Positions 29,454-54,640 of a DNA stretch of 64,000 bases are shown here, in pieces; position 1 is the first letter of the stretch; every line of letters starts with the position of its first letter. The translations under genes and the position numbers were made by a program. The notes beneath the pieces were generated by a model that had not been told where the DNA came from, did no database searches, and was given only the letters and a program-made list of their open reading frames with translations. Source of the DNA: a virus; the IMG/VR virus record IMGVR_UViG_3300024353_000005, positions 1 to 64,000 of that record; one strand, 5' to 3'.

Positions 29454-32400
29454 TTATCCTCCTAATCTAACCAACCAACTTGTGTCCTTAAAAGTTTCTA
29501 TTCTTTGTTTCCCAAATATCTCATCAACTGCTTTCGTAACATCTGGTAAATACCCGTAATCGTGTCCACCAATCATTCCATTCGGCTTTATCTTTGGTAG
29601 CCAAGTTTCAATATCTTCTTTCACATTTTCATACTGGTGATTACCATCTATATAAACAAAATTAAAAGCCTTGTCCCCAGATTTTTTACTCTCTTTTGCA
29701 CTCTCGCCTTTTATTTTTATTACATTATTAAATTTCTTCATTCTAATATCAAAAGCCTGTTCTATTAATTCCATAGGATATTGTTGATAAAACGATTTAT
29801 CATCCCCATCATAGTAATTCTTCCAAGGGTCAATAGCATAAACTCTTTTACATTTCTTGGCGAATAGTTCGGTAGACTCCCCTATGTAACTTCCAACCTC
29901 TACCATAACACATTCCTTCGGCAATCCGCTAATCAGTTCTTGTAATCCTTCTTTTCCTCCTACAAAGTTCCTCACATACATCCCTTTTGGAATATCGCTT
30001 TCTTTTATTATTTTACTTTTTTCCACAGTCTTATCAGTAACCTCATAAAAATAAGTCAAATTATATGGGTTAAATTGCGCTGTAGATTTATAACCAAAAG
30101 ATGCTAAATAATTATCTATTCTTTGTTTCAAAATAGCCGATTTCGCTTCTATAAATAAGTATGGATGACATTTCTGCAAAGTCTTTTTAGCACCCTGTAA
30201 TACATTATACTCATAATCTTCAACATCTATTTTGATAAGTGATATTTCCTCATCTTTCAATACTTCATCAAGGGTAATCATTTTTATAGAGTTTCCCTCT
30301 TTTATATAAGTCCTTCCATCATATTCTATTCCTGATCCACTTGGGGATTTTTCTAAATCACAAAAACCTGCTTTCGCTCCCACAGCATAAGGAAAAACTT
30401 TAATGTCCCTCAACTTATTCATTTTTATATGATTTTCTAATACTTTTCTAACCTTATCATATGGCTCAAAAGCAAAAATTTTAGAGTGTGGACAAAATAA
30501 ACTAAAAAATATAGTATGATTTCCTATATTAGCCCCCACATCTACTATAACTTTATTTTTATCAAGCTTTAATTTTCTTGAGAACTCCAATAACTCCTCT
30601 TCATAGAAATTCCCATTCCACAAAAACCTCTGATTACTAACATCATTATTCGTAATAGATGTATCTATCCAAATTACCTTGTTGTAATTCTTTAATAGAA
30701 CTTCTCTTTTTTCAGCTAAGATTGCTTTCCATTTTCCATATTGCTCATTTTTAGTCAATATATTCGGCTTTGTTATATGTCCACCATTTTCGTGTGCCTC
30801 TAAAATCTCTCGCATAAATTTATCTTTATCATCTGTCAATAAATCGCTGTTTACGGCCTCTCTCAAAGCACCATAGCCTTTCGTGCAAAGTATATGAGTT
30901 CGGCAACCCAATATTTCCGCCAAATAAGGGGATACCCCAAATGTTTCTGGGAAATCGTTGACATAAAACATTCCTACCGAACTTGCTATCTCCCTTATTA
31001 CATCTTCTAATGTAGAGAGACTCCCTAAAAATACTATCCCAGCTTCCTTTAATTTTTGCTCGTTCACCTTATCATACCCAGGTGTGCAAACATATAACTT
31101 TGCACCTATAAATCGACCATCCTTTTTTAGTTCCGACCATAGTTTAATCGTGCTATCTAATCCTTTCACATTAGCACTTGCATAGATATATTTATTCTTA
31201 TCTTTCTCTGCTTTGTAATTATAAATCCAATCTGGAAGCCACAATTTTATCGTTTCAATATTCTTAACATATTTTTCGAAGAGAGATTTCTGCCAATCTG
31301 ATACTGTAATAAGAGTAGCGTTATCCTTATTTAAAGCCTCGAATAAATGCTTATGAGCAAGCGGTGGTGCATCGTGTGCCCATACAATAAGTCTTTTATA
31401 TTTAATTGGAGGCAAACTGCTATATCTAAAAACTATCAGGGTATCGCACTCGTAATTATAACAGTTATTATAGTTTTTCCACAATATTCTATCATGCACC
31501 TTTGGTTTATCAGTTCTAGAGAAAGCCAGCACTTTCTTTTCTTTAGCAAGCTCGGTTAGTAAAAGTGATGCTTCTAATATTGAAGCCCCGACCCCTCTCT
31601 CTTTCCAAGTTCTTGAGGTAAATGGTGTCGTAACATCATCGTAAAAGATAATATCATATTTTATAGGTTTCTTCTCTTTATAGTTAATCACAGCAAACTT
31701 TTTATTTGTAGTATTGTATTCAACATATTTCTTTCTTAATTTCTTTGATACATTTTCGAGTAATTGCTTTTCCATTCCACGATTTGTATCATCGATTAGT
31801 ATAGGAACTTTGGTATTAAATAATTTGAGATTTTCATAAAAACCCTTTCTTCCTATATACCCAGGTGGGCCATCTACTAATATTATGTCATACTTGGTCG
31901 GAAGTTCCTTTTTTAATATATCCACATCATACCAGCCATTTTTTATAGATGCATAAATATATTTAGCCCTATTTGTAAGATTAAGCCACTCTTTATCATG
32001 CTCCACAGAATATACTTTGTAGTCCTTCGCCAAATCTATTGTGCTTTTCCCACTTCCAAGTTCTAGTATGGTGCTTCCTCTTGGGATATTCCTTCTTATC
32101 CAATTATACATTTCCTTATCCATAGACCACTCTGAAATTTTGTTCAGTGAAAATTCTCGATTCTTTATATTCTGCTCTTTAATAGATTTAGGAATTCCTG
32201 TCATAGAATCTATCCTATTACATACCCTAATCGACTCCGCATATTTTCCTACATAATAAAGAGCAATTGAATACTCAAACAACATCAAATAACTGTAGAT
32301 ATTCTGCTCAACGAATAACACATCTAATTTGGGATATTTTATTCCGATTCCTATTCTGGAGAACTCGTATGCCAGTTGCCTCTGTCCAAGATTGCGATAT

Positions 32401-37802: not shown

Positions 37803-40097
37803 TTACCTCCCGATAAAATCCTGAAAGTAAGTTTCCATTTCCTCTCTCGAAGCCTCTACTATCTTAGAAAAATTCTTATAAAACTTGTAATATAATTTTC
37901 CCTTAAAACCGCCTGTTTTATTCTTGATAACGCTTATCTCGATAACAGGCTGTGATTTCCCATTCTCATCCACAAAATATAAAGTGCTGTCATCCCGCAA
38001 ATCAAAATCATTATAGAGCAGTGCCGTAAAATCGGAATCGAACTGCAAGTCAACGCACTCCTTTATATCGTCGCCCAGTGGCCTTCGTAGCGAGTTTATT
38101 TTCTTGAGTTCGGCTGTAGCCACGACTGGAATGTCATAATCGGTTTTCCACCTTTTCAACGTATCCGATACATACATATATGTTTCCCTTACCGAGCCGA
38201 ATCTTAATTCGCTTTTTATCCTGTGCAGATTATCAACGATTACAATCAACTGTTTCTTGCCTGCAATTTCCTTATAAATCCTGATGTATTTTTCCATTTC
38301 CTCTATGCTACGAATATCGTTTTCCTCTTTTACAGCAAACGAACTCGACAAGGATTTCAAGTTGGTCATCGCTTTTTCACGGACTTTGAGCAATTCTTCG
38401 GCTCTTTCGGGTTCGAGTTCCTTATTATATTTAATCTTGAATTTTGGATTTGACACAGTATTTATTTCCAAGTTGGTATCGGCAGCAATTATTCTAGGAA
38501 GTATCTGCCTGATATTATCGTCAATAGAAAAGAACAATACAAAAACATCATTATATTTCGTAAGATTTAGGGCTAAATTTAATAAGACTGCCGACTTTCC
38601 TATGTTTGTTTGTCCAGCAAGCAAATAGAAAGCATTTTGTAATCCATCTAATTTTTTTGTGAGTATTGGATAACCAGTTTTCAGACCCAAAAGTCCACTG
38701 CCCCTTGACCAAGCCCAAGACTCGAATTGGTTTACCTCAGTTTCAAGAGACGATTTTTCTTTCAGTATATCCCGTGAGGTTAATAAATACCTTCCCTGTC
38801 CCAACTTCTTATTCCGTTCTACTTCCTTTTTAAGTGCCTCAAAAGTAACATCCAAAACCTCGGCTAAATCCCTTATCATCTGCTCAGTAGTTACATAATC
38901 TTCCTCGCTGACTACTAATTGTATCAGGTCATTTTTAAGAAATTCGTTCCCCTTATTATTTTTTAAGTCCTTGAGTTTCCACTCAAAAATGGTAAACTCT
39001 GGCAGATTAAGAAAATCCTCTGTGCTATGGCTTTGCAAATATTCATCTGGGTCTTTGTTCCCATTTGGCTCCTTGATAAAAACCTCTATATCCCTTTTCG
39101 CTTTTAATTTCTCCTCGATAATTCGGGTGGTCGCCTCTTTTCCCGCCTCATCATTGTCAAGGCAGAGTGTTAATTGTTTAATTCGGTTATATACCAAGAG
39201 GTCATATTGTTTGTCGCTAAATCCCAAGCCACCCAAAGCGATAACATTATCTACTCCTCGCAAAGCCAAAGACCACACATCAGCATAGCCTTCAACAAGA
39301 TAGACTTTGGGATGATTTTTCGCCTCTTTTAAATTATATAATATCTCGGCTTTCTTATACAAATTAGTCGCCCTAAAGTTAATATATTTCTGTTCCCCAT
39401 TTTTATCGCTTAATCTCCTGCTGGCGAACCCAGTTATCCTGCCATAGCCATCTCTGATAGGAAATACTAATCTGTTATTTAAAACGCCTTTGGCACTATT
39501 CTGGTTTTTCTCATTTGCTTTATCTGTTAAACCAGCCATTTCAAGTTGCTCTCTGGTATATCCCCGCTTTAAAAGATTAGCGATTAACTTGTCATAAAGA
39601 CAGTAGCCAAACTCAAACTTGTCTATGATTTTATCCCATCGCCTTTTTCTGATATAATCCTTGACTTTTTTCAACGATGAGTGTTCTTGTTTTATTACTG
39701 CTTTCATCATCTTGTTAGCCACTTCCAAAATTTCCCTTAACTGGCTTGCTTGCTTTTCTCTATCGCTTATATCCTCTACCTCATAAGAGATACCAAATTT
39801 TTTTGCCAAGTATAAAACATTGTCGGTAATAAACTCGTTTCCTGTAAGTGGCTTGCCTTCCAAAAAATAAGCACAAGCAAATATATCAGCATTGGATACA
39901 TCATCGCACACGAAACATTTGATATGCTCATCATCAGGAAAAAATGTTGCTGATGGAGAGTTATCATCATTTCTGTGATTAGAACGACAGGGACAAGTCA
40001 GGTGATTTCCCTCAAAATTTGTATCATGTTCTTCTAAATAATCCCGCAGATATGGTCTTATTTTATTTTTAAGTTCTTCTAAATTTTTTATTCGCAT
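37803..40097 (-). CDS. DnaG primase-DnaB helicase fusion
   Basis: Zn-binding CPC...H...CFVC, RLVFPI, KYIN, TOPRIM VEGYAD/DND.AG, Walker A GQTNIGKS, VDN. Confidence 0.92.
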   Translation of the reverse strand: MRIKNLEELKNKIRPYLRDYLEEHDTNFEGNHLTCPCRSNHRNDDNSPSATFFPDDEHIKCFVCDDVSNADIFACAYFLEGKPLTGNEFITDNVLYLAKKFGISYEVEDISDREKQASQLREILEVANKMMKAVIKQEHSSLKKVKDYIRKRRWDKIIDKFEFGYCLYDKLIANLLKRGYTREQLEMAGLTDKANEKNQNSAKGVLNNRLVFPIRDGYGRITGFASRRLSDKNGEQKYINFRATNLYKKAEILYNLKEAKNHPKVYLVEGYADVWSLALRGVDNVIALGGLGFSDKQYDLLVYNRIKQLTLCLDNDEAGKEATTRIIEEKLKAKRDIEVFIKEPNGNKDPDEYLQSHSTEDFLNLPEFTIFEWKLKDLKNNKGNEFLKNDLIQLVVSEEDYVTTEQMIRDLAEVLDVTFEALKKEVERNKKLGQGRYLLTSRDILKEKSSLETEVNQFESWAWSRGSGLLGLKTGYPILTKKLDGLQNAFYLLAGQTNIGKSAVLLNLALNLTKYNDVFVLFFSIDDNIRQILPRIIAADTNLEINTVSNPKFKIKYNKELEPERAEELLKVREKAMTNLKSLSSSFAVKEENDIRSIEEMEKYIRIYKEIAGKKQLIVIVDNLHRIKSELRFGSVRETYMYVSDTLKRWKTDYDIPVVATAELKKINSLRRPLGDDIKECVDLQFDSDFTALLYNDFDLRDDSTLYFVDENGKSQPVIEISVIKNKTGGFKGKLYYKFYKNFSKIVEASREEMETYFQDFIGR

Positions 40098-40592
40098 AGA
40101 TTATAATTATCCTCTCCAAAATATCTGCCACAAACCTTTAATAACTGTAGCAACTAAAAATCCCACCAGTCCAATAAGACAGAGCATAAGAAATCCTGCT
40201 ATTATTTGATAAAGTATTGTCATTTATTTTCTTTCTGGGTAGTTAAATACCCTTCTGTTCCATATAATTCCATACTTATTGTCTTTAAATCATTTAGTTT
40301 TGCATAAATAGCAGGAAATGTGGAATGTTCTGATTTATCTGCCGACCAAAAATATAAATCTTTAAATATATTTGACTTTAACCAAGTATTGTGTTTTGCC
40401 TTATAACAATGAGGCATCATATTTCTTAGTTCTTCTTTAGACAATACTTTCATTTCTCCACCTTTATATGCAATCGTTCCAAGATAGTGTCCACGACAAA
40501 ATACTCCCTCGCAACATCGTATTCCTCTCCCGAAGAAAGTATTTTCTCCACAAGGTTAATCAGTTTCCTGTATTTTCGCTTGCTAATATATC

Positions 40593-40820
40593 TCATACTT
40601 TTTTTAAAGTTCTCTTCTTTATTGTCCACTCACTTACCCAAACAAGTGCTCTATCATTTTTAAGTCGGATTTGATATCTAGTCACAGAATTATGTGAACC
40701 CATTGGTACTCTCATTCTATCCATAAGTATTCCTGTTTGACCACTATAAAATCCTGCAATAATTTCAACCCTATCTTTATAATGAAACTTTACGATTTTC
40801 TTTTTCTTTCGCCCAAACAT
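40593..40820 (-). CDS. KOW/SH3-like small protein
   Basis: DRVEIIAGFYSGQTG KOW-like motif. Confidence 0.45.
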   Translation of the reverse strand: MFGRKKKKIVKFHYKDRVEIIAGFYSGQTGILMDRMRVPMGSHNSVTRYQIRLKNDRALVWVSEWTIKKRTLKKV

Positions 40821-40822
40821 TC

Positions 40823-41701
40823 TTATCTGCTCCTTTCATTATTTTTAATAAATTTATCACCATCTATCGTTTCCCGAAACTTGCGATTTCGCTTTATCCG
40901 ATGAATATCCTTTATCACATACTCGTTTGCAAAAGTCCGCAATAATCCTGTGTGCATAGATAGCCGTCTTTCCTCAGCTTTCTTGAAAGACCAGTCCAGA
41001 AAATCTGGGACATCGTTTGCGGTCATATTGTTTTTCTCGAACTGCCTGATGAGGTTATTCATCTTAATACTGTCCATCGCCCAGTTCGGTGTGTATTTCT
41101 TCCCATAGGCATTGTTAAATTTGGACAGGAACACTCTCACCAGATAAGGTGCGTTTATCCTTCCCTCTTTGTCGGTAACTTTCTTCCTTGTATTCTTGGA
41201 ATTTTTTTCAAGTGTGGTTGACAGATTTTTCAGAAACTCGTTTGCTGGAAATCTTCCACCCAAAATTTTAAGTGCTTTTCTCAACTTATACCAGCTCGGA
41301 TATTTCCAACTGTCCAAAACTGGATTAAAGACATAAATCTTCGTTCCCTCTTTGATAAAAAATCCCACCCTATCAATGGCCTGCTTGACCAGATTTTTCT
41401 TTCCCTTCAAGGTCTGCAAGAAATCCTGCTGAAAATGCTGTGCGATTTCCTTCTTGACTATAAACTCTTTCAAGACAACAGAACCCACAATATTATAATC
41501 TATCAGGCTATCCAGAGTAAGCGAGCCAACTGTGCTGTCTAATCCGATTTGGAGGCTAAGGTCTTTTAGGCTGACTTTTTCGAAATTTCCCTTATCTGAA
41601 TAAAAATAATATGTAAATAGCAGAAGCAAAACATTAATCTGCCTCTTGTTCAGTGGTAACAGATTTAGTGCGATGAGTAAATCTTGGAAATCGGTTTTCA
41701 T
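40823..41701 (-). CDS. hypothetical protein, possible replication initiator (wHTH-like N-terminus)
   Basis: located upstream of the primase-helicase; weak HTH-like pattern. Confidence 0.35.
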   Translation of the reverse strand: MKTDFQDLLIALNLLPLNKRQINVLLLLFTYYFYSDKGNFEKVSLKDLSLQIGLDSTVGSLTLDSLIDYNIVGSVVLKEFIVKKEIAQHFQQDFLQTLKGKKNLVKQAIDRVGFFIKEGTKIYVFNPVLDSWKYPSWYKLRKALKILGGRFPANEFLKNLSTTLEKNSKNTRKKVTDKEGRINAPYLVRVFLSKFNNAYGKKYTPNWAMDSIKMNNLIRQFEKNNMTANDVPDFLDWSFKKAEERRLSMHTGLLRTFANEYVIKDIHRIKRNRKFRETIDGDKFIKNNERSR

Positions 41702-42357
41702 TTACTCTCCTCTATGTTATTTAGGGTTTTTTTTACACCAAATTATAAAATGAATAGCTATAGCTATAAAAATTATAACCAGAGCCCAAAAACAGTTCCT
41801 TGCTATTCCCTTACATATTGTATAAATTATCTCATAGCCTTCTATCTGTGTCATTTAATCTCCACATCTTTTATTTGGTTGCACCCTGTATAATTAACAA
41901 AATCAATATACTTCATAAGTTCATATTCTTGTCTATATTTTATTACCTTCCAAATTTCTATAAACAAACCATAATCTGTTTCCTGTACCAAATTGATTTT
42001 ATTTGGATTAATCAGAGTTCCATTAGTATCGTTCTCAGCTAAACATTCATGATATATTTGCCTATTTTTTTCTGTGTAAATTCTAACCCTAAAATGTAGA
42101 GAAAATAGCCCAATGATAAATACTAAACTAAAAAGTAATAGTATTCCTCTATATAAAAATATTTTTTTCATTTTTTCCTCCTATCTGCCTAAAATTTTAG
42201 CCCCGTAAAAAATAAAGAAATTGATAGCCCCAAGCAAATAGTTAATAATACCTGTAGTCAACTGTATCGGTCTGATTAACAAGCAGCAAGTTCCTGATAT
42301 TATAAAGGCGATTACTGTTATAGGTTGGGCTATTCTTAAAATTATCTCTAACATTTT

Positions 42358-43071
42358 TTATTCTCCCCGATTAAATTTTAGAATTTTTTGTTTCGCTTTA
42401 TGTAAATCTTTTAGTTCATGTTCCCAAAAGATTAAAGTCTGATAACCGTAGGCTCCATAAACTATTGATCTTCGCTTATCTCTTTTTTTAGTATCTTTTC
42501 TATTGTGCCAATAATCGCCATAGAGTTCTATTATTTTCTTCTGACCATTATAATTTATGAAATCTGGATTTAATCCTCCCAATATAACTTTTCCATTTCC
42601 GACATATTTATATTCATTTGGCAAGATTTTCTGAAGAAATTTATCTAATAGTTTCTCTGGTTTATTAGGCTTTATCCTTAAAGATTTCATCCATTTTTTA
42701 ATTACTCTATTTTTATACTCTTTATTCTGCCATCTCTTTAACATATTTCTTTTAAATTTTCTTTTCGTTTCTAAACTATGTTTATAACCTTCCAACGATT
42801 TACTAATTCGATCTTTAATATTTTTGGAGATAATATGACCTTTTAGGGCTTCGCTTTTAGTTCTTATTTTTATACTGTATTTTTTCAAATATTGTCTAAT
42901 GGTTACATCGCTACAATTAAATATTTTAGCAATTTTCATTGATGATTTTCTATTCTCGATATATTCTTTAATCAAATATTGTTTAGTTATGGGGTATTTT
43001 TTGGGCCTTTTTAAAGCCGCTAATCTCATTTTCTGTTTAGTCTCTTTTGTATGTTTTGAGTTCAGCTTCAT
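42358..43071 (-). CDS. homing endonuclease, NUMOD3/HTH plus Vsr/DUF559-like (EDxHD) domain
   Basis: KHTKETKQKM and HSLETKRK NUMOD3 repeats; PDF...IIELYGDYWH...D...WEHE. Confidence 0.85.
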   Translation of the reverse strand: MKLNSKHTKETKQKMRLAALKRPKKYPITKQYLIKEYIENRKSSMKIAKIFNCSDVTIRQYLKKYSIKIRTKSEALKGHIISKNIKDRISKSLEGYKHSLETKRKFKRNMLKRWQNKEYKNRVIKKWMKSLRIKPNKPEKLLDKFLQKILPNEYKYVGNGKVILGGLNPDFINYNGQKKIIELYGDYWHNRKDTKKRDKRRSIVYGAYGYQTLIFWEHELKDLHKAKQKILKFNRGE

Positions 43072-43231
43072 TTCAAAGTGTCCGCAGAATAGGCATAGCC
43101 ATCTACGATAAAGAAATAAGTCTTGTCCTTATAAATGCCAGTTCCACCACAAGCCCTACAGTTCTTATCCTTGCCTTTGCAGATATAGCACTTTGCCTTG
43201 TTTATTCTGGTTATGACCTCTAATTTCTTTT

Positions 43232-43594
43232 TCATTTTATCTCCTCTATAACTTTATGTATTTTTATCATTTCATTTGCAAAATTTTCTGCTTCGGTTTT
43301 TTCATCTAAATTAATTGTTAAACATTGATTAGGTTCTTCTGTAGGAATATAAGTTACTGTTTTAGTAATTTTAGTTTCAGAATTAGTAGCATAAATCTTA
43401 AAAGTATATTTCTTATTTGGTTCAAGTATCATTATAAAGGAATTTTCACCAGATAATCGCATATCATTAGAGAATACTGCATCTATATTATAAGTAAGGC
43501 TTGGTTCTATATTTATCTTTACATACACTACATCCAAAGAAGAACAACCCATAACAAATAAACTAATTAAAAATAAGCAAATTAATTTCTTCAT
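43232..43594 (-). CDS. putative lipoprotein
   Basis: signal peptide with lipobox VMGC. Confidence 0.6.
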   Translation of the reverse strand: MKKLICLFLISLFVMGCSSLDVVYVKINIEPSLTYNIDAVFSNDMRLSGENSFIMILEPNKKYTFKIYATNSETKITKTVTYIPTEEPNQCLTINLDEKTEAENFANEMIKIHKVIEEIK

Positions 43595-43863
43595 TTCATA
43601 TCTCCTTTCTATCCAGTTTCTCCCTAATCGCTAAAGCCCTATCTATAAGCCTATCCCAGTTCTTTCGCAAATTTCTGGCTGTATCAAAACGAAAGCCCTC
43701 TTCCTTCAATTGGTCAAGGGCCATTTTGAATATACTTGGTGGGTTCTGGCGTTCAAAAGCATTGTAGATAAATTCTTCAACCTCTCTGTCTGTAACAGGA
43801 TAGGTCATTTTTCTATCTTTTCTCAACTTTTTACCCCTCACTATATAGTGTTTTTCAGACATT

Positions 43864-44205
43864 TTACAAGTACCCCTTAAGAGATTTTTTCAAATTATTT
43901 TTAGCACAATTGAGATACTCACTAACAGCTTGTTGACTAATTCCCAAAATTTTCCCTATTTCCTTCTGCTTCTTATTCTTTATGAAGTATAATTTAATAC
44001 ATTGTCTTTGTTTTGGTGTCAAACTTTTTAGGGCCTTTCTAACTACTTTAGCAAGGTGCTCATGCTTCTTCTGAGTAACATCAAACTCGTTTTCCTCCTC
44101 CTCAATGAGAATTTCCAAAGGAGTCTTGGGTTCTTGTTCCTCTCTTAACAGTTCCAAAGTTCGAGCAGTCTTACCTCGAAATATTTCCTTGTATTGTTTG
44201 GGCAT
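43864..44205 (-). CDS. sigma-70 region 4 domain protein (transcription regulator)
   Basis: LTPKQRQCIKLYF......EIGKILGISQQAVS. Confidence 0.8.
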   Translation of the reverse strand: MPKQYKEIFRGKTARTLELLREEQEPKTPLEILIEEEENEFDVTQKKHEHLAKVVRKALKSLTPKQRQCIKLYFIKNKKQKEIGKILGISQQAVSEYLNCAKNNLKKSLKGYL

Positions 44206-44214
44206 AATTTTCTC

Positions 44215-44775
44215 CTATCTCACAGTTACATTAACATCAGTCTCTACATCTGTTTCATTAGTATTCTCATTGGTGTTAGTATTATTATTTGTTGTTGTAG
44301 CAGTTCCAGACCCACCTGTTGCAGAATTAGTTATAGTTCCTGTATAAGCTGTAGAAGTTATATTGCCCACAGAAGAACTACTTTGAGAAGCAATAGTACC
44401 CATATTTACACTTTGATTAAATCTTATTCTTTTAATAGCGTCTGTTACTTCTCGTAATGGCATACCTTGAGCAATTAAGTACTCTCTCATTGCTTGAGCT
44501 TTAATAATTTCTATCTTAATTTCGTGTTCTCTTTGTATCTCAGTCTCGACTTGTCTTGTCCTCTCAATCATCCGTTGTTTATAATGCTCCTGCTCGGATA
44601 ATCTTTCTTTCTCAGTTAAATTTCCCTGCAAATAGATACACCCATCTTTTTCGTAGTACTCACCTTTTAAATCTAATTCATTAGCTTTTGCTCCCCTTCC
44701 AAAAATTAGCAGAAAACCTACTATCACCAAAATTGTCACCACCATCCTAATTAAGCCTACTACTTCTTTTCTCAT
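44215..44775 (-). CDS. secreted/membrane protein with Thr/Asn/Ser-rich tail
   Basis: N-terminal hydrophobic segment with AKA cleavage-like site; low-complexity C-terminus. Confidence 0.6.
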   Translation of the reverse strand: MRKEVVGLIRMVVTILVIVGFLLIFGRGAKANELDLKGEYYEKDGCIYLQGNLTEKERLSEQEHYKQRMIERTRQVETEIQREHEIKIEIIKAQAMREYLIAQGMPLREVTDAIKRIRFNQSVNMGTIASQSSSSVGNITSTAYTGTITNSATGGSGTATTTNNNTNTNENTNETDVETDVNVTVR

Positions 44776-44964
44776 TCTATCCTCTTTCTGCTTGTATTAT
44801 AGCCAAATTTTTCTCTGGCCTCTATGAGCTATTTCTGAAGTTGCTACTTTACTATTCCATTTACAGTTTTTATTTTGACAATCTTTACAACCATTAAGCC
44901 TATCGAGTTCCTTTTTATAAAATTTATCCTTCTTTTCTCCCCTTTTCCAAGCCTCCTTTTCCAG

Positions 44965-45066
44965 AAAATAAAAAAGCCGAACCACCACAATATTCGGTAG
45001 CTCGGCTATCATTTCTGACCCGTAGCTTTGCGCTTCGCTATTTCAGCGAATTGCCTTTATCGTAAT
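44965..45066 (-). ncRNA. c-di-GMP-I (GEMM) riboswitch 2 with intrinsic terminator
   Basis: AAAGGCAA-TTCGCT-GAAAT-AGCGAA-GCGCAAAGC...GGGTCA-GAAA-TGATAGCC-GAGCTACCGAA; terminator AGCCGAGCTACC/GGTGGTTCGGCT + TTTTTATTTT. Confidence 0.9.
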
Positions 45067-45120
45067 CTAAATTGTATATTAAAGTTACACTACTTTAGAG
45101 ATCCTCCAATTTCTCTCCTA

Positions 45121-45224
45121 AAATAAAAAGCCGAATTGCCTATCCTTCGGCAACTCGGCTTCGCTTAAAGCGACCTTGAGTTTTGCGCCCCACTAATTCA
45201 GTGGGTAGCCCTTTCGGAGATAGT
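45121..45224 (-). ncRNA. c-di-GMP-I (GEMM) riboswitch 1 with intrinsic terminator
   Basis: CGAAAGGGCTA-CCCACT-GAATT-AGTGGG-GCGCAAAAC...GGTCGC-TTTAA-GCGAAGCC-GAGTTGCCGAA; terminator AGCCGAGTTGCC/GGCAATTCGGCT + TTTTATTT. Confidence 0.85.
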
Positions 45225-45248
45225 ATTAAATTTCAACCTGTAATATTA

Positions 45249-45277
45249 AGTATACACTATAAAATCTAATTTGTCAA
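45249..45277 (-). promoter_or_regulatory. sigma70-type promoter driving the riboswitch leader
   Basis: TTGACA-N17-TATACT. Confidence 0.85.
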
Positions 45278-45281
45278 GTCC

Positions 45282-46787
45282 CTAATTTTTATTTTTTTCA
45301 AATCTACTTTTTTCTCGTAATACCTGCAAAAATATATCTACTAATTCTGGATCAAATTGTTTTCCCTTCTCTCGTTCCAATTCTTCTATTGCTTGTTCCT
45401 TAGTTTTAGGATTTCCATTATAGGGTCTTTTGTGTATCATTGTATCATAACTATCTAAAATAGCAGTAATACGAGAAAGTAAAGGGATATTCTGACCTCT
45501 CAATCCATCAGGATAACCAGTTCCATCCCATCTTTCGTGGTGGCGTAATATGTAATCCGCTATATGAGAAAATTGCCTTACCCCTTTTAAAATGTTATAG
45601 CCTAAAATTGGATGAGTTTTCAGCTTTTTCCATTCTTTTTCAGTTAAAGGTTCTTTTTTATGAAGTATTCTGTCTGGAATGCCTATCTTACCTATATCGT
45701 GAAATTTAATAGTATAATGTAAATCTCTTATTTCTTGAAGTGATAAATGAAGTCTTTTAGCGAATTTAGCTCCCAATTTTATTAATCTATTATGATGTAT
45801 TTGAGTTCCCATATCTTTTTGTTTCATAACTTCAATTAAACTATTAATAAATTCTTTCTGAGCAGTGCCTTCTTTATCCATTTTATCTTTATACATTTCT
45901 TCATCTGCTTTAGATATATATCTATTTAAATCTTCTTTTTTAAATTCAGTTATTGTAATAGATCCAATAGCATAGTTAATATTAATTTTTTTAACTTCTA
46001 AAGAATAAGATTTACATTTTCTATTTAATTTCTTAATAATTTCTTCTGCACGACTTCGGTCTGTTTGTTTAAGAAGGATTGAAAATTCGTCCCCCCCAAT
46101 TCGTGCTACTACATCGTCTTGTCTTACGCAATTTCTCATAGACTTTCCAAAATATCGAAGTATCTTATCCCCTGCTGGATGTCCCCAAGTATCATTAATA
46201 ATTTTTAAATGATTTACATCTATTGAGATTATAGAAATGGGATAGTTTCTTTTAGTATTTATTCTTCTCAATTCTTCTTCAAAATAAGTTCTGTTATATA
46301 ACTCTGTCAACGAGTCGTGATAGGCATTATATTTTATCTGCTCTTGTAATTTTCTGTGCTCAATTCTACTTTTTTGTAATTGCAATTTTATTTGTCGCTT
46401 TGTTTGTCTTGCCATATACTCTTGAAAACTTGTTTTTATAACCTCCAGAAAAGTTAATGTGTCATAGGGTTTTATCAAAAGCTTTTTAATTCCTATTTCT
46501 AACAATTGTTGTGTTTGTTTTAATGTTAAAATTAAACCAGTTATTACTATAATACAAGTGTCAGGATAATTTAATTTTATATAATAAGCTAAATCTACCC
46601 CATTTCCATCAGGTAATTCAATATCAATTATTACTACTCCAATATTATTTTCTTTGAAGATTTTCAACCCTTCCTGAAAAGAATTAGCAATTAAAGTTTT
46701 ATAACCCTGAGCTTGAAGATTTATAGAAATAGCTTTTGCTAATTCTTTGTCATCTTCTATAATAGCTATTTTAGGAATATTATTCAT
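45282..46787 (-). CDS. REC-GGDEF-HD-GYP c-di-GMP synthase/phosphodiesterase
   Basis: REC: IEDD, DIELP, ITG, KP; GGDEF: NDTWGHPAGD, I-site RQDD, GGDEF; HD-GYP: HDIGK, HHERWDGTGYP. Confidence 0.95.
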   Translation of the reverse strand: MNNIPKIAIIEDDKELAKAISINLQAQGYKTLIANSFQEGLKIFKENNIGVVIIDIELPDGNGVDLAYYIKLNYPDTCIIVITGLILTLKQTQQLLEIGIKKLLIKPYDTLTFLEVIKTSFQEYMARQTKRQIKLQLQKSRIEHRKLQEQIKYNAYHDSLTELYNRTYFEEELRRINTKRNYPISIISIDVNHLKIINDTWGHPAGDKILRYFGKSMRNCVRQDDVVARIGGDEFSILLKQTDRSRAEEIIKKLNRKCKSYSLEVKKININYAIGSITITEFKKEDLNRYISKADEEMYKDKMDKEGTAQKEFINSLIEVMKQKDMGTQIHHNRLIKLGAKFAKRLHLSLQEIRDLHYTIKFHDIGKIGIPDRILHKKEPLTEKEWKKLKTHPILGYNILKGVRQFSHIADYILRHHERWDGTGYPDGLRGQNIPLLSRITAILDSYDTMIHKRPYNGNPKTKEQAIEELEREKGKQFDPELVDIFLQVLREKSRFEKNKN

Positions 46788-48610
46788 TTTTTCTCTCTCA
46801 AATAAACCATTCGTCTTACACATCCCGCAGGAATTAGTATAGGCTCATCTTCAGGATGACCATTTATTCTCTTCAGAACAACTTTCTCTTTATCCTTATG
46901 CCATAAATAACCAACGATTTTTATTTCAGGCAATACTAAATCTTCTATTTTCCATACTCCTTTACCATAAGAAATCATATCTACGAGGGTAATCTCTACT
47001 CGCTTGTATTCTCTTTTCCTTTTACCCATCTTTATTCTCCTTTATATTTCCATAATTTTGATAATCAGCCAACAAATTAAAAGAATTAATAATACTGCTA
47101 ATAACAGCATCTCATTTCCCCTTCTTTCGATACTCATTAAATAATCTATTTCTTTCCAGCGGACAATCCTTACAACTCTTTCTCTTACAAATCCAACAAA
47201 GAGGCTCTGTGTTCTTTAAGATATAATCAACATTTTCCTCTAAATGTTTAATTGCCATTGCTTTTTGTAAAAATACTCTTGGATTAATTTTCATTTATGT
47301 CCCTTTTTTATACTAAAAATCTTCTTACAACTCATACAAAGACTTACTCGTTGTTCCTGACTATTTGAAAATTTAATGACTACCTTCTGTGTATTCTCAC
47401 TTTTACAATATGGACAACAATTATTTTTCATTATATCTCCTTTATCTATCTGGTTTATATTCCTCTTTTTCCCGATAAATTAAGTAAGAAACTAGAAACA
47501 AGAAAACGATTAATCCTATTCCTATCTTAAGTAAAAACATTTTATAGTCCCCCTTGCTATTTTATATTAAAGATGAAAGAAGACAAGATAAAATCTCTGT
47601 TAAGATATAGCCAATCCGTAAAATCAACAAGCCAAAAACTATTGCAAGACTAACAACTGCTACAGTAAATATGTTTTTATAAGTCATTTTATCCTCCTTA
47701 TTTATAGTTCTACTATTTTGTAATCTTGGGCACAATTCACTCTCGCCCATTGTTCGGCACTATGCCCACTTCCAAAAAAGATAACATCCCCCTCTTCATT
47801 TCTATCTATACTACAATTGTCATAAGTATCTTTAACATACTCGATTACGATGTACATTATTTTATTCTCCTATTAAAATTCTTTTTTTACTCCGAGATAC
47901 TTTGCTATCTTCTCTGCAATTTCTGCTTTCTTCTTAAGGTCAGTCAAATCAATATGAAAATAGTTAGCATACTCTCTTAATTGTTTTGTGGTTAATTCAC
48001 ATCTTAGCATTTGCCAATCGGTTTTTCTCATTCCTTTATGCCTCCATTCCAATATGTTTACAACAAGTTTTACACATTAAAACTACTGCTTCTTCATTAT
48101 TTTTTTCCAGAACCAAATTAGCTTTTTCATATTTTATCATTAAATCTATTCCGATATCTTTAATAGTAAAAGCAAAGGGTGATTGTTCATTGCCACAAGT
48201 CTTACAATTAGGATATAATACATTTTCATCTCTACTATATACTTTTGTGCCTAAGATTAATTTACTCATTTTTTCTTTCCCTTTATTATCTCTACTAATT
48301 TAGAACATTCATCCAATATTTGACTTTCGTTTACTTATCCTAGCCCTTCTAAATACAAAGTCTGTATTAACATAATAATAATCATAATATAAATCTGAAG
48401 ATATAACTAAATTATTATGTCTTCCCTTATCTTTTCCAAGAACTTCTAATAATTTTTGGGTTTCTTCAGGAGATAACCAATCTACCAATGTAAAAGCCTT
48501 ATCATTCATAGTCCACTTAGCATCCATTATCTTTCTCCAACTTTTGTTAATCTCTATTTTTCTTTACTCCCTTTAATTGCTTTCGACCCGCCATTGATTT
48601 AACCTATATC

Positions 48611-48683
48611 AGGCTGTCCCGTTCTTTCGGTAGCCTACCACTTTTAATCTATATGGTTTCTTGACAGGCAAACAAGACAGCCT
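48611..48683 (-). ncRNA. putative structured intergenic RNA (long bulged hairpin)
   Basis: 13-bp outer stem AGGCTGTCTTGTT/AACGGGACAGCCT and 8-bp inner stem GCCTGTCA/TGGTAGGC, with G-U pairs. Confidence 0.4.
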
Positions 48684-48840
48684 ATTTTATTCCTTTTCAA
48701 TATCTAATTCTAATAGTATATCATCTAAAATATCCGAAGCGGAAGGCAACTGTATTTCCTCATTTTCAACATAGATGCCGCTTAAATATTTGTCAATGAG
48801 TTTTTCTACTGTTGCATAATCCTGTCTATCAATTTTAATT

Positions 48841-49368
48841 TTAGGCATTACCTTCCTCCTTTGGTTCTATTGGAGAATTACTACTCCCTCCCTGTGATTG
48901 ACTATAACAATATATTGTTTGTTTTAATTTATTTGCTATTGGTTGAGCTAATTTTTCGCCCCTGTCAAATTCTCCAATCGTTGGTTTTTCATCTTGATAT
49001 AATACTTCTATTATTTTGTCAACCCAACCCTGTCTTGTTCTATAAGTTTTTCTTCCCTTGCCTACCACCACAAAAGTTAAATGCTTATCTCTTAAATCAA
49101 CTCCTGTATTACTATATAAATCATCAGAATTAGTGTGCCAGGGTGCTTTTAATTCTTCTATTGTTCCATCTTCCAAAGTAAAAGATAGTGTTCTTCCACC
49201 AAAACCATCGGAATTTTTGCCACCAGATACATAGATATTATCAGCAGGATTATCCTGAATAGCGTATAACCAAATTCTGCCTGACTTTCCAATTACCTTT
49301 TTGTATCGTCTTTCCTCTGCTTCAGAATGACCGCATAGCATCGGTTGTCTATCAATTATATAATCCAT
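48841..49368 (-). CDS. hypothetical phage protein
   Basis: GFGGR..F..EDG....L..PW pattern; RBS GGAG. Confidence 0.6.
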   Translation of the reverse strand: MDYIIDRQPMLCGHSEAEERRYKKVIGKSGRIWLYAIQDNPADNIYVSGGKNSDGFGGRTLSFTLEDGTIEELKAPWHTNSDDLYSNTGVDLRDKHLTFVVVGKGRKTYRTRQGWVDKIIEVLYQDEKPTIGEFDRGEKLAQPIANKLKQTIYCYSQSQGGSSNSPIEPKEEGNA

Positions 49369-50213
49369 TTTTCCATCTCCCTTATTCTTGAAAATCAACT
49401 TTAGTCCCATTCTCATAATAAGCCTCGTCTGGATGATTTTGGCAGTATCCAAACTCTATCCCAAAGTCATTGTAAGCCCAGAAAGACTTGAGGCACTTCG
49501 GGCACCTGCCCCTTGATACCCAGAATTTTGTCCCTAAGTGTTTAATCAAAGCATAACAAATATCTAAAAACCAAATTATTACAAATATAATATATATTAA
49601 CAAAAATTTATTCATTTTTATTCTCCTAATCCTCATCGTAAATAAATCCGCACTCGCTACAAACAACCTCATAACTGCCCCTACTGCTTCGCATAACTAT
49701 ATCCCCACCGCAGACTATACAAGGTCTTTTCCTGTTGGTATATTCCAGCCTTTCTTCAGAAGATAAATTTCTAAATCTCGCCTCACCATCCAAAAACTGT
49801 AACCCTCTGAGGGCATTTTTTATGTTGGCAAGCTCAGTTTCTAAAGTCCGCAATTCTTGGTCTGTTAGGTAGTAATACATTTTATTTCTCTTGCCCCTTT
49901 AACTTCTTACTAAAACATTCTTCCGAACAGATAGTATGACAACAGTTCTCTATAAACCATTTTTTGCGATAAGGATTATCAAAATCTTCTTCTTTGCCAC
50001 ATATATCACAAATAATAATTCTTTTTATCCCCATTTTATTTCTCCCAATTTTCTCTCGGTCTCAATTCCTCGACCTTATACTGCCTGCAAGCTGGGCAAT
50101 AGCAGTCATCATTCAAATCGCATTCACAGTCGATACATCTGCCCGTCTTTATCATTTCCTCTGCTCTCTGTTCCTGATTTATAAAGTAAAGTAAATCGCC
50201 TAATTCTCCCATC

Positions 50214-50570
50214 TTACTCTCCTTTTAATAATTCTGGGCTTTCATATATGTTGCCTATAATCTCTATCATTTTAGTTTGTTTTAATATATTGCTATAACC
50301 GCTTTCCTCGAACTTCACAATAAAACTTCTATCTATTATTATATCTTTGCCCTCTTCTGTTTTGACTTTAGGAACAAAAAGTCTAACTATATTTTTTTCA
50401 TATATTTCTTTACCATTCTTATCCTTAAGGCCAGTATATTGTTGAATATCTATCGCTGTAATAAATCTTAATTCGCATTTAGTAAAAAATCTACTTAAAG
50501 TCAGGAACTTATCAGAATAGATAAATCTATTTGCTCTTTTATCCCAAGCCCTAAACTTTATCTCTCTCAT
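50214..50570 (-). CDS. YopX family protein
   Basis: MREIKFRAWD...QYTGLKDKNGKEIYE...IGNIYE. Confidence 0.9.
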   Translation of the reverse strand: MREIKFRAWDKRANRFIYSDKFLTLSRFFTKCELRFITAIDIQQYTGLKDKNGKEIYEKNIVRLFVPKVKTEEGKDIIIDRSFIVKFEESGYSNILKQTKMIEIIGNIYESPELLKGE

Positions 50571-50571
50571 C

Positions 50572-50829
50572 TCAATACTCCTTCCCAGCAACCTTAACTC
50601 GTTCTATGGTTTGCAAATTGACAGTTCGGAAAGCATTTTTATTCATATCAAAAACAGTAAGCAATCCCTTGAGAATAGGATAGTATCTCATACCCTTACC
50701 AGTAACCCCTTTCTTCACTCCGAGCCGACAATTCATACTTCGCCGAGTCCCGTCCTTCTTGGTAAAGACGATGTTCATTATCCTGCCATTGGAGTCTTGG
50801 ATTTTCTTCAGCATTTCGGATTGGGTCAT
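50572..50829 (-). CDS. WYL_2/SH3-fold small phage protein
   Basis: VFTKKDGTRR.M...VFD......R pattern. Confidence 0.7.
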   Translation of the reverse strand: MTQSEMLKKIQDSNGRIMNIVFTKKDGTRRSMNCRLGVKKGVTGKGMRYYPILKGLLTVFDMNKNAFRTVNLQTIERVKVAGKEY

Positions 50830-51028
50830 TTTAGTTTCCTTTCTTTAGCATACTTATCTATTTTTATATAACTTCCTTTTGCCACCATTCTTTTTGTATA
50901 ACATTGAGGACATAATTTCATAGCCACTACTTCTGGAGTATATGCTTTTACTCTAAATTTCTTTTTACAATCTTGGCAAGTAAATATTTTATCTTTCATT
51001 TAAAATCTCCTTTCCAAGTCTCACTATA

Positions 51029-51057
51029 AGTATACCATATTTTAGGGTGTTTGTCAA
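51029..51057 (-). promoter_or_regulatory. sigma70-type early promoter
   Basis: TTGACA-N17-TATACT. Confidence 0.8.
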
Positions 51058-51512
51058 GTTTTATTTTTATATTCTTTTAGCAGAATGCTCGCTATTCTGG
51101 ATGCGTTTCTTTCTAACTTCTGCCTAACATGGCTATTTATATCCACGACATTCGTTCTCCATTCCTCAAAATATTTTCCAAACCATCTGGGGTATCTATA
51201 TTTCTGCAAGTAATGAGCGGTTTCGTGTGCTACTATAAAATATAGTCTATCAAAAAACTTCATTGGTGGGACTGCTTCTGCGTATCTATTTATATCCTTA
51301 AATTCCTTTAAAAACTTTAATCCATACAATAAAAAATTTTCGTTTTGTTTATAAGTACAATTTGGATATAAAAAGTTAAATTCTATTTCAATAAGAGGCA
51401 GTTCAAGCCTCTTCATAATTTCCCAACTCCACTGCCTAATCACATTTTTTAATTGCTCATTCTCATCCATTTTAACATCCTCGATTTTGGGGTTTACTTT
51501 TCTAAGTTGCAT
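51054..51512 (-). CDS. HExxH zinc metallopeptidase-like protein
   Basis: VAHETAH...LERNA. Confidence 0.65.
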   Translation of the reverse strand: MQLRKVNPKIEDVKMDENEQLKNVIRQWSWEIMKRLELPLIEIEFNFLYPNCTYKQNENFLLYGLKFLKEFKDINRYAEAVPPMKFFDRLYFIVAHETAHYLQKYRYPRWFGKYFEEWRTNVVDINSHVRQKLERNASRIASILLKEYKNKT

Positions 51513-53821
51513 TTCCCTACTTTTTCACTTTTCGCAATATCAGTTAAGCAACTCATTATTTTTGCTATCATAACCTCGTTCGCATTAAGAAGTTATATCC
51601 ATTTACTACACAATGTAGTATTACTATAAGATATAGATTTATTATAATCTGAAGCAAGTCTAGTTCTCAAAATCGCCAATTTTTCGCCTATATCCTCCTA
51701 TCATAAAAAGAGTTATGCCAATCTTCAACAAAATATAGTAGAAATCGTACTATTGTTATATATTATATATGCTCTATATAGTAACTGATAATATAGGATC
51801 GGTTTAGGGATTTAGTTTATCATTTACTTGAAATTTCTTATATGCCTTTTCTGCCCGTTCAGCATAAGCAAACCAGTAATCCTTTTTCTTGGTATTGCCA
51901 GCTTTTTCAAACTGTTCGGCTTTCTTAAGTGCCTCGTTTACCAGAGTCATATTGTAAGACATTTTAGTTCTCCTTTTTTATATTTCTCATAAACGCAATT
52001 AAATCTACAATTCTTTTCTGTAGCTATTAAATTAGTCCATTGTCTCCATTTTTTAACAAATCTATATATTTTACAATAGAAAAACCTAAGACTAAACCAC
52101 CTAAAGGCTCTCCAATTAATAATGCGATTAATCCTATAACAGAGAAAACAGTAAACCCTACAGTATGAAATATTTTTTTTCGCAATGTAAGTTTAATCAT
52201 TTTATTCTTCCTTTCAATTATATATACTCGTTATGATAACTTAATTCTCTAACACAATTTTCATAAGTTCCAGTATAAACACAATGGCTAAAGATATAAG
52301 CTGAATAAGTCCCATCATTATTTTTAATAATTCTAACTGCTCGCACTTTATTTACTCCTTATATTCTGCATTTGTAGATTTTCTTATAGTAACATTATTT
52401 ACATTTAATTCTGCATCAATAGCTACTGCTAATCTTTCAGCGTATTTAAAAGCACATTCATATGGTTGTCCTAGTCCTAATTCTAATTTCATTGTTACAG
52501 TATAAATTTCTACAACTTCTAAGTCATATCCTCCAGCGTCTCCTAATTTCCATACATTAATTTTTAAACCATTATACATTTTAGCCATTATTTTTTCTCT
52601 TTCTCTTTAGTTTCTTTTTCCGTCTTGTTCTTTTCTTAGGCTGTTTCTCAAAGTATTCCCTCTCCTTTTGTTTATGTATCTCAAGCCACCTTAAGTATTT
52701 TTGAGCTTGGTTAAGAGCCTTCCTCTGCCTCTCATTCCCTCTTTCTTCAAACTGTCGGCTCAATTCTAAATCTTCGGCTATTACGAGCCAGAAAGTCAAA
52801 TTTTTTGGCATCTTAGGCTTTTTCATTTTATCTCCTTTAAATATTTTTTAAGACATCTATTACAAGGAACATATCCAAAATGCCTCATATAAAATCTATC
52901 TAAAGAAAACTTTTCTTTCCGAGTTTTCCACGAAAGTAAACCATTATACCTTTCCCAGACAAACTGTAAGACACAACATAGAGGGTATCTATATCTAAAC
53001 ACTCCCCCCACAAAATCAGCTAATAAACCTTTGAAAGTTGTTTTTTTATAGCAACAAGCATAATCAATATCTTTCATTTTATTTACCCCATATAAAATAC
53101 AATATTTTAAGCATTTTTTCCATCAATTTCGGCACAGTATTGTAAGTTTCCTTAATTATATCTTCTGTTCGTTCAAGTCCATTTTTCTTTATAGACTCCC
53201 TCACACAGTCATATATTCTAGCCCTGGCCAAAATTTTAATCGCTTCTTCTGGAGTATATCCCTCTTTATTTTTATCAATAAAAGGATAATTCTCTCCCAT
53301 CTCATCATATTGTCTATCGCTATCGAATATCATTTAATCCTCCTCTAATAGTTCTTCTACCTCACAAAAATTATCTCCAAATTCTTCTTTGAGAAGTTTT
53401 ACATCTTCTTCGTCATTCAAATCCATACCAGCACTTTGTAAAATATCTTCAGCAATAGTATCTTGCCCATACATTAATACTGTTCTTACTGCTATAAGTA
53501 TTCCTCTTGTTAAATACTCTTTTTGTATCTTTGTTAAATTACTCATTTTATTCTCCTTTTATAATTAGATTTTCTAACAATAATACTTGCTATCAAAAGA
53601 GGGATTAGCAAAACCAATAAAGTGCCGAGTAATATGTTTACAAATTCATTCATTTTATCCTCCTGTATATTTATCCTTTATGCTTTGCTCGTCTCCGATA
53701 CTTCTTGTTTCTATAGTTCTATTGCAAGTTTTACAAAGGCCAGCATAAACTCTTTTAGTTTCATCATATTGCAATTCTATAATCTCTCTACATTTTGAGC
53801 ATTTAAAGACTTTGTAGATAA

Positions 53822-54611: not shown

Positions 54612-54640
54612 AGTATACCACATAAAATCCATTTTGTCAA
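54612..54640 (-). promoter_or_regulatory. sigma70-type early promoter
   Basis: TTGACA-N17-TATACT. Confidence 0.8.

Follow-up and report, generated by a model that had tools for sequence, protein, structure and literature searches.

We describe a conserved module in which a predicted cyclic di-GMP (c-di-GMP) cyclase gene of a phage lies directly upstream of two c-di-GMP riboswitches. The module is found on the minus strand of a 64,000-nt stretch of phage DNA, here called the window, which comprises bases 1-64000 of the linear, 81,674-bp IMG/VR record IMGVR_UViG_3300024353_000005 (hereafter G000). In brief, a gene encoding an enzyme with receiver (REC), GGDEF and HD-GYP domains is followed by a sigma70-type promoter, by two c-di-GMP-I (GEMM-I) aptamers, each overlapped by an intrinsic terminator, and by a string of phage genes that starts with a secreted-type protein and a protein with sigma-70 region 4. 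The parts, their order and their conservation are established, as is, from structure, the ON logic of the switches. The wiring is conserved and so far undescribed, and each part has precedent. On balance, we lean towards the reading that this is a genuine conserved regulatory module of large, probably virulent phages, and that it acts as a self-supplied c-di-GMP relay between early and later genes.

The cyclase slot in related phages

Using a DNA pattern derived from the shared expression platform, we located two related IMG/VR records, G017 (106,111 bp, rated complete) and G018 (35,414 bp). At 99.98% identity to G017, G018 is taken to be this same phage, recovered from a second sample. G017 aligns collinearly with G000 over its whole length, at approximately 70-92% nucleotide identity. 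It keeps the promoter, both aptamers and both terminators, and these are followed, in the same order as in G000, by genes for the secreted-type protein (193 aa in G017), the sigma-region-4 protein (114 aa; 83% identical to the G000 gene at the DNA level) and the 88-aa protein. The 88-aa protein, used as query against the viral collection, matched only G017 and G018.

Nucleotide homology between the two phages is lost precisely across the enzyme gene (45300-46815 in G000, 29061-29582 in G017) and resumes at 46816. The slot in G017 (29089-29607; 9090-9608 in L188) holds a gene for a 172-aa GGDEF-domain protein with a short coiled-coil lead, in which neither an HD-GYP nor a receiver domain was found. 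The G017 cyclase is 30% identical to the G000 GGDEF domain over 144 aa, while the neighbouring 88-aa proteins are 90% identical, and the G000 enzyme is closer to cellular GGDEF-HD-GYP proteins (37-45% identity) than to the G017 cyclase. In both phages the cyclase gene shares an ATGA with the gene before it (an 84-aa homolog in G017) and ends at or inside the -35 box, and both cyclase genes are AT-richer than their genomes (28.4% against 34.6% G+C in G000, 26.2% against 35.0% in G017).

The swap of non-orthologous cyclases in the same slot argues that maker and sensor work together, and no better evidence is available that the two form a unit. The HD-GYP and receiver domains are missing from the complete G017 genome and are therefore lineage-specific additions, not core parts. 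A sequence-only reading of the window had proposed a self-contained circuit that writes, erases and reads c-di-GMP. The writer beside the reader has stood up, being conserved in the collinear relative; the eraser and the receiver are absent from that relative, and this part of the proposal does not hold for the lineage as a whole.

The G017 protein, with the motif RETD-RAYRP-SGDEF, groups with short-type cyclases (P0130-P0143) that are stand-alone proteins of approximately 160 aa with an N-terminal coiled-coil-like lead, mostly found on short metagenome contigs. SGDEF is invariant and RxxD nearly invariant across 14 sequences of this type. Judged by the catalytic motifs kept in their relatives, both cyclase types look selected.

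The REC-GGDEF-HD-GYP enzyme

The reading frame at 45282-46823(-) matches three Pfam families, Response_reg (PF00072; residues 19-129, E 1.4e-16, 61 bits against a cut-off of 30.2), GGDEF (PF00990; residues 167-317, 3.8e-39, 134.5 bits against 23.8) and HD_5 (PF13487; residues 335-494, 8.5e-35, 120.4 bits against 27.2). A six-frame search gave 137.2 bits for GGDEF and 64.2 bits for REC. The start codon is likely the ATG at 46787, giving a protein of 501 aa, because four close relatives begin there and because this codon shares bases with the stop of the 81-aa gene upstream (ATGA). The translation contains RQDD-VVARI-GGDEF, in which RxxD lies five residues before GGDEF, as well as HDIGK and HHERWDGTGYP; the enzyme that had been read from the letters alone is thus present.

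GGDEF, DxLT..NR, INDTxGH, GD, RxxD, HD, HHE and GYP are invariant across six aligned long-type sequences. Among solved structures, the HD-GYP domain is closest to PmGH (4mcw; 2.6e-36) and REC-GGDEF to 6zxm (1.1e-25). In the receiver, the acidic pair (IIEDD), the Asp (IID), the Thr (ITG) and the Lys (IKP) align to solved REC-GGDEF proteins. We suggest from these motifs that the enzyme would make c-di-GMP and probably break it down too. No domain of a cognate kinase (HATPase_c) was found in the 81.7-kb record, which is approximately 77% complete, or in complete G017, and any kinase input would therefore be the host's.

The closest relatives of the enzyme, P0002-P0005, are 81-85% identical and are located on JGI contigs of 5-8 kb. 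A metagenome scan with the enzyme gave relatives at 32-43% identity among the matches listed. Named cellular relatives are spread over Atribacterota, Bacillota and others, all at 37-45% identity. In the viral collection, the enzyme sequence alone as query matched nothing, and the enzyme alignment as query matched nine loci with HD-GYP only.

Aptamers, terminators and ON logic

Rfam family RF01051 matches aptamer 2 at 44993-45065(-) with 57.1 bits, above the gathering score of 35 bits. Aptamer 1 falls just under this score and is accepted as real because its ortholog in G017 scores 50.9 bits; the G017 ortholog of aptamer 2 scores 49.3 bits, which is likewise over the cut-off. The two GEMM-I aptamers of the sequence-only reading were thus recognized by Rfam outright in one case and by way of the related phage in the other. 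The variant family RF03167, listed first in a local scan, was tried and rejected, both scores being below its cut-off of 59 and its diagnostic G being an A here.

In the cmscan alignments, both aptamers carry a G immediately 5' of the leading GC pair, an A at the first A position of GCAAA, and CC in the 3' ..CCGAA, in columns that we take to be equivalent to G20, A47 and C92 of Vc2. The c-di-GMP-type contact residues had been correctly read from the letters. With these canonical G, A and C identities, binding of c-di-GMP by both aptamers is predicted. The two-hairpin architecture is supported by an RNAalifold consensus of ten viral aptamers with 18 pairs, 11 of which change on both sides; the set is small, and sequences of the phage itself are part of it. 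Aptamer 1 has C-G as its outer pair in G000 and U-A in G017, a compensatory change.

In both terminators, the 5' arm is the 3' strand of the second helix of the aptamer. Each aptamer folded alone takes the two-hairpin GEMM-I shape. The minimum free energy (MFE) fold of the whole unit consists of the first hairpin plus the terminator, at -46.1 kcal/mol for unit 1 and -37.1 kcal/mol for unit 2; with the 3' arm of the terminator blocked, the folds reach -28.7 and -21.9 kcal/mol, respectively. The G017 units gave the same folding outcome, and in G017 terminator 2 the 3' arm is altered with the pairing kept, and perfect there. Because each terminator overlaps the 3' strand of its aptamer and each unit folds to the terminator by default, we read the two units as ON switches in series, where termination is the default and ligand should allow read-through.

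The MFE fold of unit 1 (45112-45225(-)) also pairs UCUCC, 5' of aptamer 1, with GGAGA just past the T run of the terminator. This pairing may be due to chance, or it may form an additional long-range helix.

Promoter and the early gene boundary

The sequence-only reading placed the stop of the enzyme gene 5 nt from a consensus promoter. This agrees with our analysis, in which four bases separate the TAG stop from the -35 hexamer (an offset of 5) and the promoter, TTGACA-17-TATACT with 11/12 consensus matches, ranks best of 28 promoter-like sites in 43-48 kb. It belongs to a promoter family, ACTTGACAAA-N-TATACTTA, that is conserved in both phages, each of which carries it three times in its early region. 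The copies are located at 54640 (54612-54640(-)), 51057 (51029-51057(-)) and 45277 in G000, and at 21543, 25543 and 29604 on the plus strand in G017. TG precedes the -10 box in two of the three family copies.

Sigma70-like sites are enriched upstream of the module (46.7-61.4 kb; 77 against 55.4 +/- 8.2) and show no enrichment downstream of it (26-45.3 kb; 70 against 76.6 +/- 7.9). Within 26-45.3 kb, there are no strong minus-strand terminators apart from those of the two switches. Across 17 intergenic gaps that lie downstream of the switches, no phage-specific promoter motif was seen to recur, and the only recurring words are Shine-Dalgarno-like. The module lies where a promoter-rich early block gives way to a block poor in promoters that runs on into the genes for the primase/helicase and the polymerase, and it is possible that the gate controls the whole downstream block as far as the replication genes.

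Rarity of the arrangement

The aptamer scan used our own covariance model, built from ten viral GEMM-I aptamers, four of this lineage among them, and run with default filters. No convincing GEMM-I was found in the 4-kb flanks of 71 other viral (IMG/VR) GGDEF loci, where one match reached 15.8 bits, or at nine viral HD-GYP loci. The adjacency is thus rare among the viral loci scanned, a point that the sequence-only reading had left to a search. GGDEF, HD-GYP or REC matches are present in 137 of 50,697 GenBank phage records. None of these 137 records has a match covering at least 80% of the enzyme, that is, the REC-GGDEF-HD-GYP architecture, and in six sampled records of the 137, including Bacillus phages SP-15 and G, no GEMM-I was found by the GGDEF locus. 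A blastn search with the window region 43-48 kb gave no match among GenBank phages.

Among 160 cellular homolog loci, GEMM-I occurs in two and is adjacent in neither (4.8 kb away in one; on the opposite strand at 2.9 kb in the other). Searching from the side of the riboswitch, we obtained seven viral records with a strict GEMM-I DNA pattern. Five of these hold a total of six aptamers that Rfam confirmed, and no GGDEF was found in any of the seven. Within the sampled sets, the arrangement of a cyclase with tandem switches is confined to this lineage. The literature, searched as full text with few subscription journals covered, held no description of a phage cyclase coupled to a c-di-GMP riboswitch, in line with the earlier impression that such a linked module had not been described in a phage.

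A different pairing was seen in two unrelated IMG/VR contigs, where a GEMM-I (87.6 and 69.3 bits) is followed approximately 1.2-1.3 kb on by the pemK RNA motif, RF02913 (69.4 and 67.3 bits). The coordinates of the two elements are 2237-2324 and 3601-3681 in L093, and 25-119 and 1230-1310 in L094.

Proposed mechanism

We propose that the module works as follows. The enzyme gene closes an AT-rich, promoter-rich string of early genes and would be translationally coupled to it. The early-class promoter directly behind the enzyme stop would be read by the main sigma factor of the host, and transcripts from this promoter, together with read-through from upstream, would meet two complete c-di-GMP-I riboswitches in series. 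Without ligand, each switch would fold into its terminator. With c-di-GMP bound, the second helix of the aptamer would hold the 5' arm of the terminator, and RNA polymerase would continue. Both switches would have to open, which could give a sharper threshold. The genes unlocked in this way would be a tightly packed string encoding the secreted orphan protein, the sigma-region-4-only regulator and small proteins, and the replication genes may share the transcript.

The feeding of the switches by the enzyme, the extent of the gated transcript and the role in timing are what we infer. The phage cyclase would supply at least part of the ligand, and the module would then be a self-made second-messenger relay, or delay, from early to later genes. 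In G000 only, the receiver and HD-GYP domains fused to the cyclase could couple the relay to a kinase of the host and provide its reset.

A more far-reaching version, which we put forward tentatively, is that a virulent phage lineage times its development by a self-made messenger. The cyclase would fill the cell, and the tandem switches would give a sharp, delayed release. The sigma-region-4-only protein could re-aim the host polymerase or shut it off at early promoters, and the cyclase slot would be a swappable input socket that couples the gate to different host signals. We know of no small-molecule relay between temporal gene classes in any virus. The sequence-only reading had also considered a replicate-versus-wait decision. 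We found no support for it, a tyrosine integrase being found in neither G000 nor complete G017.

Points against the relay and alternative explanations

Several observations weigh against the self-supplied relay. Its conservation rests on two lineages only (G000; G017/G018). The RF01051 match to aptamer 1 (45146-45220(-), 33.5 bits) is 1.5 bits below the gathering score, and three of the four first-hairpin loops, those of both G000 aptamers and of G017 aptamer 2, are non-GNRA loops of five bases. The short cyclases have SGDEF instead of GGDEF; SGDEF variants can be active. The relative P0003 (84% identical) has an Asn at the phospho-acceptor site of the receiver, and P0005 (372 aa) starts after the receiver, so that close relatives differ at the sensor end of the enzyme. 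In the HD-GYP domain, seven of the eight metal ligands of PmGH (E185, H189, H221, D222, H250, H276, H277 and D305) are identical, and the equivalent of E185 is a Gly (DMGTQIHH against DPETQNH). An E185A mutant of PmGH is reported to have reduced but retained activity, and this ligand to differ between subfamilies (PMC4159591). A bifunctional enzyme running mainly as a phosphodiesterase might close the gate and not open it. The flanks were scanned over 2.5-8 kb, and divergent or distant aptamers may be missed. Finally, host c-di-GMP alone could operate the switches.

The main rival explanation is that enzyme and switches are independent neighbours. The enzyme would manipulate the host (motility, surface, biofilm), while the switches would read host c-di-GMP and turn the genes on only in sessile cells with high c-di-GMP. 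Phage cyclases without a nearby GEMM-I are indeed the rule, as seen at 71 viral and six GenBank loci, including those of SP-15 and G, and GEMM-I is also present in viral records without GGDEF and, as reported, in Clostridioides difficile prophages (PMC3649979). We nevertheless consider independence unlikely, if worth keeping in mind. The same slot, flush to the same promoter and switches, holds two non-orthologous cyclases in collinear phages, and complete G017 was found to have no other c-di-GMP part (EAL, PilZ). GGDEF, HD-GYP or REC matches occur in so few GenBank phage records (137/50,697) that a coincidental adjacency is unlikely. Conservation of the slot argues against mere coincidence; host c-di-GMP as the main input is compatible with it.

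According to a second explanation, the enzyme is mainly a phosphodiesterase, or a toggle set by phosphorylation, that holds c-di-GMP low and the gate closed until a signal from a host kinase switches it over to synthesis, and the module would then be a true decision switch and not a timer. We regard this as improbable, given that the complete relative G017 manages with neither REC nor HD-GYP. Good conservation of the HD-GYP domain and its resemblance to that of active PmGH (2.6e-36) speak for this explanation, but the domain lacks the E185-equivalent metal ligand. Similarly, the receiver keeps the acidic pair, Asp, Thr and Lys in alignment with solved REC-GGDEF proteins, but close relatives have an Asn at the acceptor site (P0003) or begin after the receiver (P0005). 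The absence of a kinase ATPase domain from G000 and G017 fits an input from the host; neither an integrase nor any other sign of a waiting state was found in these two phages.

It is highly unlikely that the switches or the enzymes use another dinucleotide, for example the 3'3' form of cyclic GMP-AMP (cGAMP). Position 20 is reported to discriminate c-di-GMP from cGAMP, and GEMM-I to include cGAMP-selective members that differ by one nucleotide (PMC6456294), but both aptamers here have G, not A, at the equivalent position. The local scan listed both under the variant family RF03167; both have A where its consensus has G, and neither reaches the cut-off of 59. Among solved structures, 5z7c, which is a phosphodiesterase for cGAMP, ranks second as a match to the HD-GYP domain. 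In both cyclase types, however, the residue at the GHxxGD position where Hypr enzymes have Ser is Asp, and Asp at this base-reading position argues for specificity for guanosine triphosphate (PMC6456294; we mapped the position by inference).

An assembly chimera, or host DNA mis-joined into the phage contig, could be suspected from the cellular nearest named relatives of the enzyme (37-45% identity) and from the sequence being found in a single run, probably the source sample, but is so very unlikely that we set it aside, because a second assembly matches without difference, the enzyme gene shares the AT-richness of the early region (28.4% G+C; upstream flank 30.5%) and is bordered on either side by DNA syntenic with G017 and G018, phages from other samples. 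The second assembly, built independently from the same run, is a 66,977-nt Logan contig that spans 38000-52000 with 0 differences at an even depth of 26.9; it bears on the question of contig continuity raised with the sequence-only reading. The enzyme gene also overlaps the upstream phage gene by ATGA.

Source record

CheckV rates G000 at approximately 77% completeness, and its G+C content is 34.6%. One public run contains the stretch, a subsurface metagenome from 2017 that is probably the source sample. PHROGs matches identify a tailed phage, with a portal, a primase/helicase, a family-A DNA polymerase (PolA), a UvsX-like recombinase and an SbcC-like nuclease, and on this gene content the record is a real phage. 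Nearly all genes from approximately 60 kb down to base 1 are encoded on the minus strand, and the structural genes are found on the plus strand from 61 kb. No tyrosine integrase, EAL, PilZ or HATPase_c domain was found in G000, incomplete as it is, or in complete G017, and no tRNA genes were found in G017.

The 'direct terminal repeat' at the ends of G017 is 99 nt long, and its first 60 nt are found again at 106012. Instead of a physical repeat, it may be an overlap left by assembling a circular or permuted genome.

Genes behind the switches

As the sequence-only reading had it, the first downstream genes encode a secreted-type protein and a sigma-region-4 protein. The latter matches Pfam Sigma70_r4 (4.6e-12) and Sigma70_r4_2 (1.2e-10) as well as PHROG sigma-factor families. 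The 186-aa secreted-type protein has no Pfam or PHROG match, and only six relatives were found among approximately 5.8 billion proteins. Searches of Pfam and PHROGs likewise gave no match for the 88-, 120-, 57-, 106- and 292-aa proteins of the putatively gated string. The coordinates of the module are collected in Table 1.

A spacer of approximately 190 nt (44776-44964(-)) lies between terminator 2 and the 186-aa gene and is probably non-coding. It is missing from G017, where the gene is found approximately 20 nt past terminator 2. A 71-aa reading frame at 44797-45012, which starts inside aptamer 2, was rejected as a gene, the spacer that it occupies being missing from G017.

The string behind the switches also contains, at 42358-43071(-), a 237-aa homing-endonuclease-like gene (DUF559/NUMOD3). 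There is nothing at the equivalent site in G017, and nucleotide relatives are located at approximately 65.0 and 100.3 kb of that genome. The gene looks like a mobile insertion.

Table 1. Features of the c-di-GMP module and its neighbours, in positions of the window
Feature	Position	Strand	Basis and remarks
81-aa conserved phage gene upstream	46784..47029	-	ORF list; stop overlaps the enzyme start codon (ATGA)
Enzyme gene REC-GGDEF-HD-GYP, 501 aa	45282..46787	-	Pfam; REC ~46437-46769, GGDEF ~45873-46325, HD-GYP ~45342-45821
Sigma70-type promoter TTGACA-17-TATACT	45249..45277	-	11/12 consensus matches; one of three family copies
c-di-GMP-I (GEMM-I) aptamer 1	45145..45221	-	RF01051 33.5 bits, RF03167 31.0 bits; folds alone as two hairpins
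Intrinsic terminator 1	45117..45162	-	14-pair stem and T run; 5' arm is the 3' strand of the second helix of aptamer 1
c-di-GMP-I (GEMM-I) aptamer 2	44992..45066	-	RF01051 57.1 bits, E 1.6e-08
Intrinsic terminator 2	44965..45007	-	13-pair stem and T run; overlaps the 3' strand of aptamer 2
186-aa protein, first gated (predicted)	44215..44775	-	Signal-peptide-like hydrophobic N-terminus, charged helical middle, Ser/Thr/Asn-rich tail
113-aa protein, second gated (predicted)	43864..44205	-	Sigma-70 region 4 only; candidate transcription regulator
88-aa protein, third gated (predicted)	43596..43862	-	90% identical in G017

Significance and comparison with known systems

If the self-supplied relay is true, viruses are able to operate a second-messenger circuit of their own within the host, with the maker and an RNA sensor placed before their own regulator and perhaps before their replication genes. 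The module is compact, approximately 2.3 kb in G000 and 0.8 kb in G017, and consists of well-understood parts, so that it is directly testable by standard assays. A compact genetic switch of the ON type, steep in its response, might also be derived from it.

Phages read bacterial signals, and a small number of them carry cyclases. The first report of a c-di-GMP-I riboswitch in a C. difficile prophage is said to be that of Sudarsan et al. in 2008. Like G000, the C. difficile prophages, with the PhiCD119-type lysis module, are phage genomes that read c-di-GMP through GEMM-I (PMC3649979). These prophages are temperate and have single aptamers, with no phage cyclase reported beside them, whereas G000 has tandem ON switches and no tyrosine integrase was found in it. 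Aptamer-terminator units of the same class in series in a 5' leader are reported for the triple tandem of Bacillus thuringiensis Bc3-5 and for tandem riboswitches generally (PMC4759541, PMC9481103, PMC11218506). The B. thuringiensis switches are chromosomal and control bacterial surface or adhesion genes, whereas the doublet in G000 stands behind a phage cyclase and would gate phage genes.

Phage-borne GGDEF genes are reported as SP15_150 of Bacillus phage SP-15, gp350 of phage G and several PHROG families (PMC12484599). Unlike the gene in G000, those of SP-15 and G have no GEMM-I within 5 kb, and none of the 71 IMG/VR GGDEF loci has one within 4 kb. The phage peptide Yip is a further phage product that is reported to raise c-di-GMP early in infection, through the host cyclase YfiN (PMC11461919). 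In contrast to the enzyme of G000, Yip is a small peptide whose target is a host enzyme, and no phage sensor of the messenger is reported alongside it. The cellular proteins PmGH (4mcw), PleD (1w25), WspR (3bre) and 6zxm have the same domains and motifs as the G000 enzyme (2.6e-36 for HD-GYP, 1.1e-25 for REC-GGDEF). Cellular relatives differ in that they mostly have PAS or GAF sensors rather than REC and have no adjacent GEMM-I (present at 2 of 160 loci, adjacent at neither).

The sister module of G017/G018 resembles that of G000 in its promoter, in its two GEMM-I ON switches with terminators, in its downstream genes and in the flush upstream cyclase with the ATGA overlap. It differs in that its cyclase is a 172-aa SGDEF protein, while G000 has the REC-GGDEF-HD-GYP enzyme, the extra spacer of approximately 190 nt and the homing-endonuclease-like gene. 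What G000 adds to this frame is another enzyme in the slot, non-orthologous to that of G017 and more elaborate, and the natural enzyme swap in an otherwise identical frame provides a ready comparison between a plain and a sensor-controlled version of the module.

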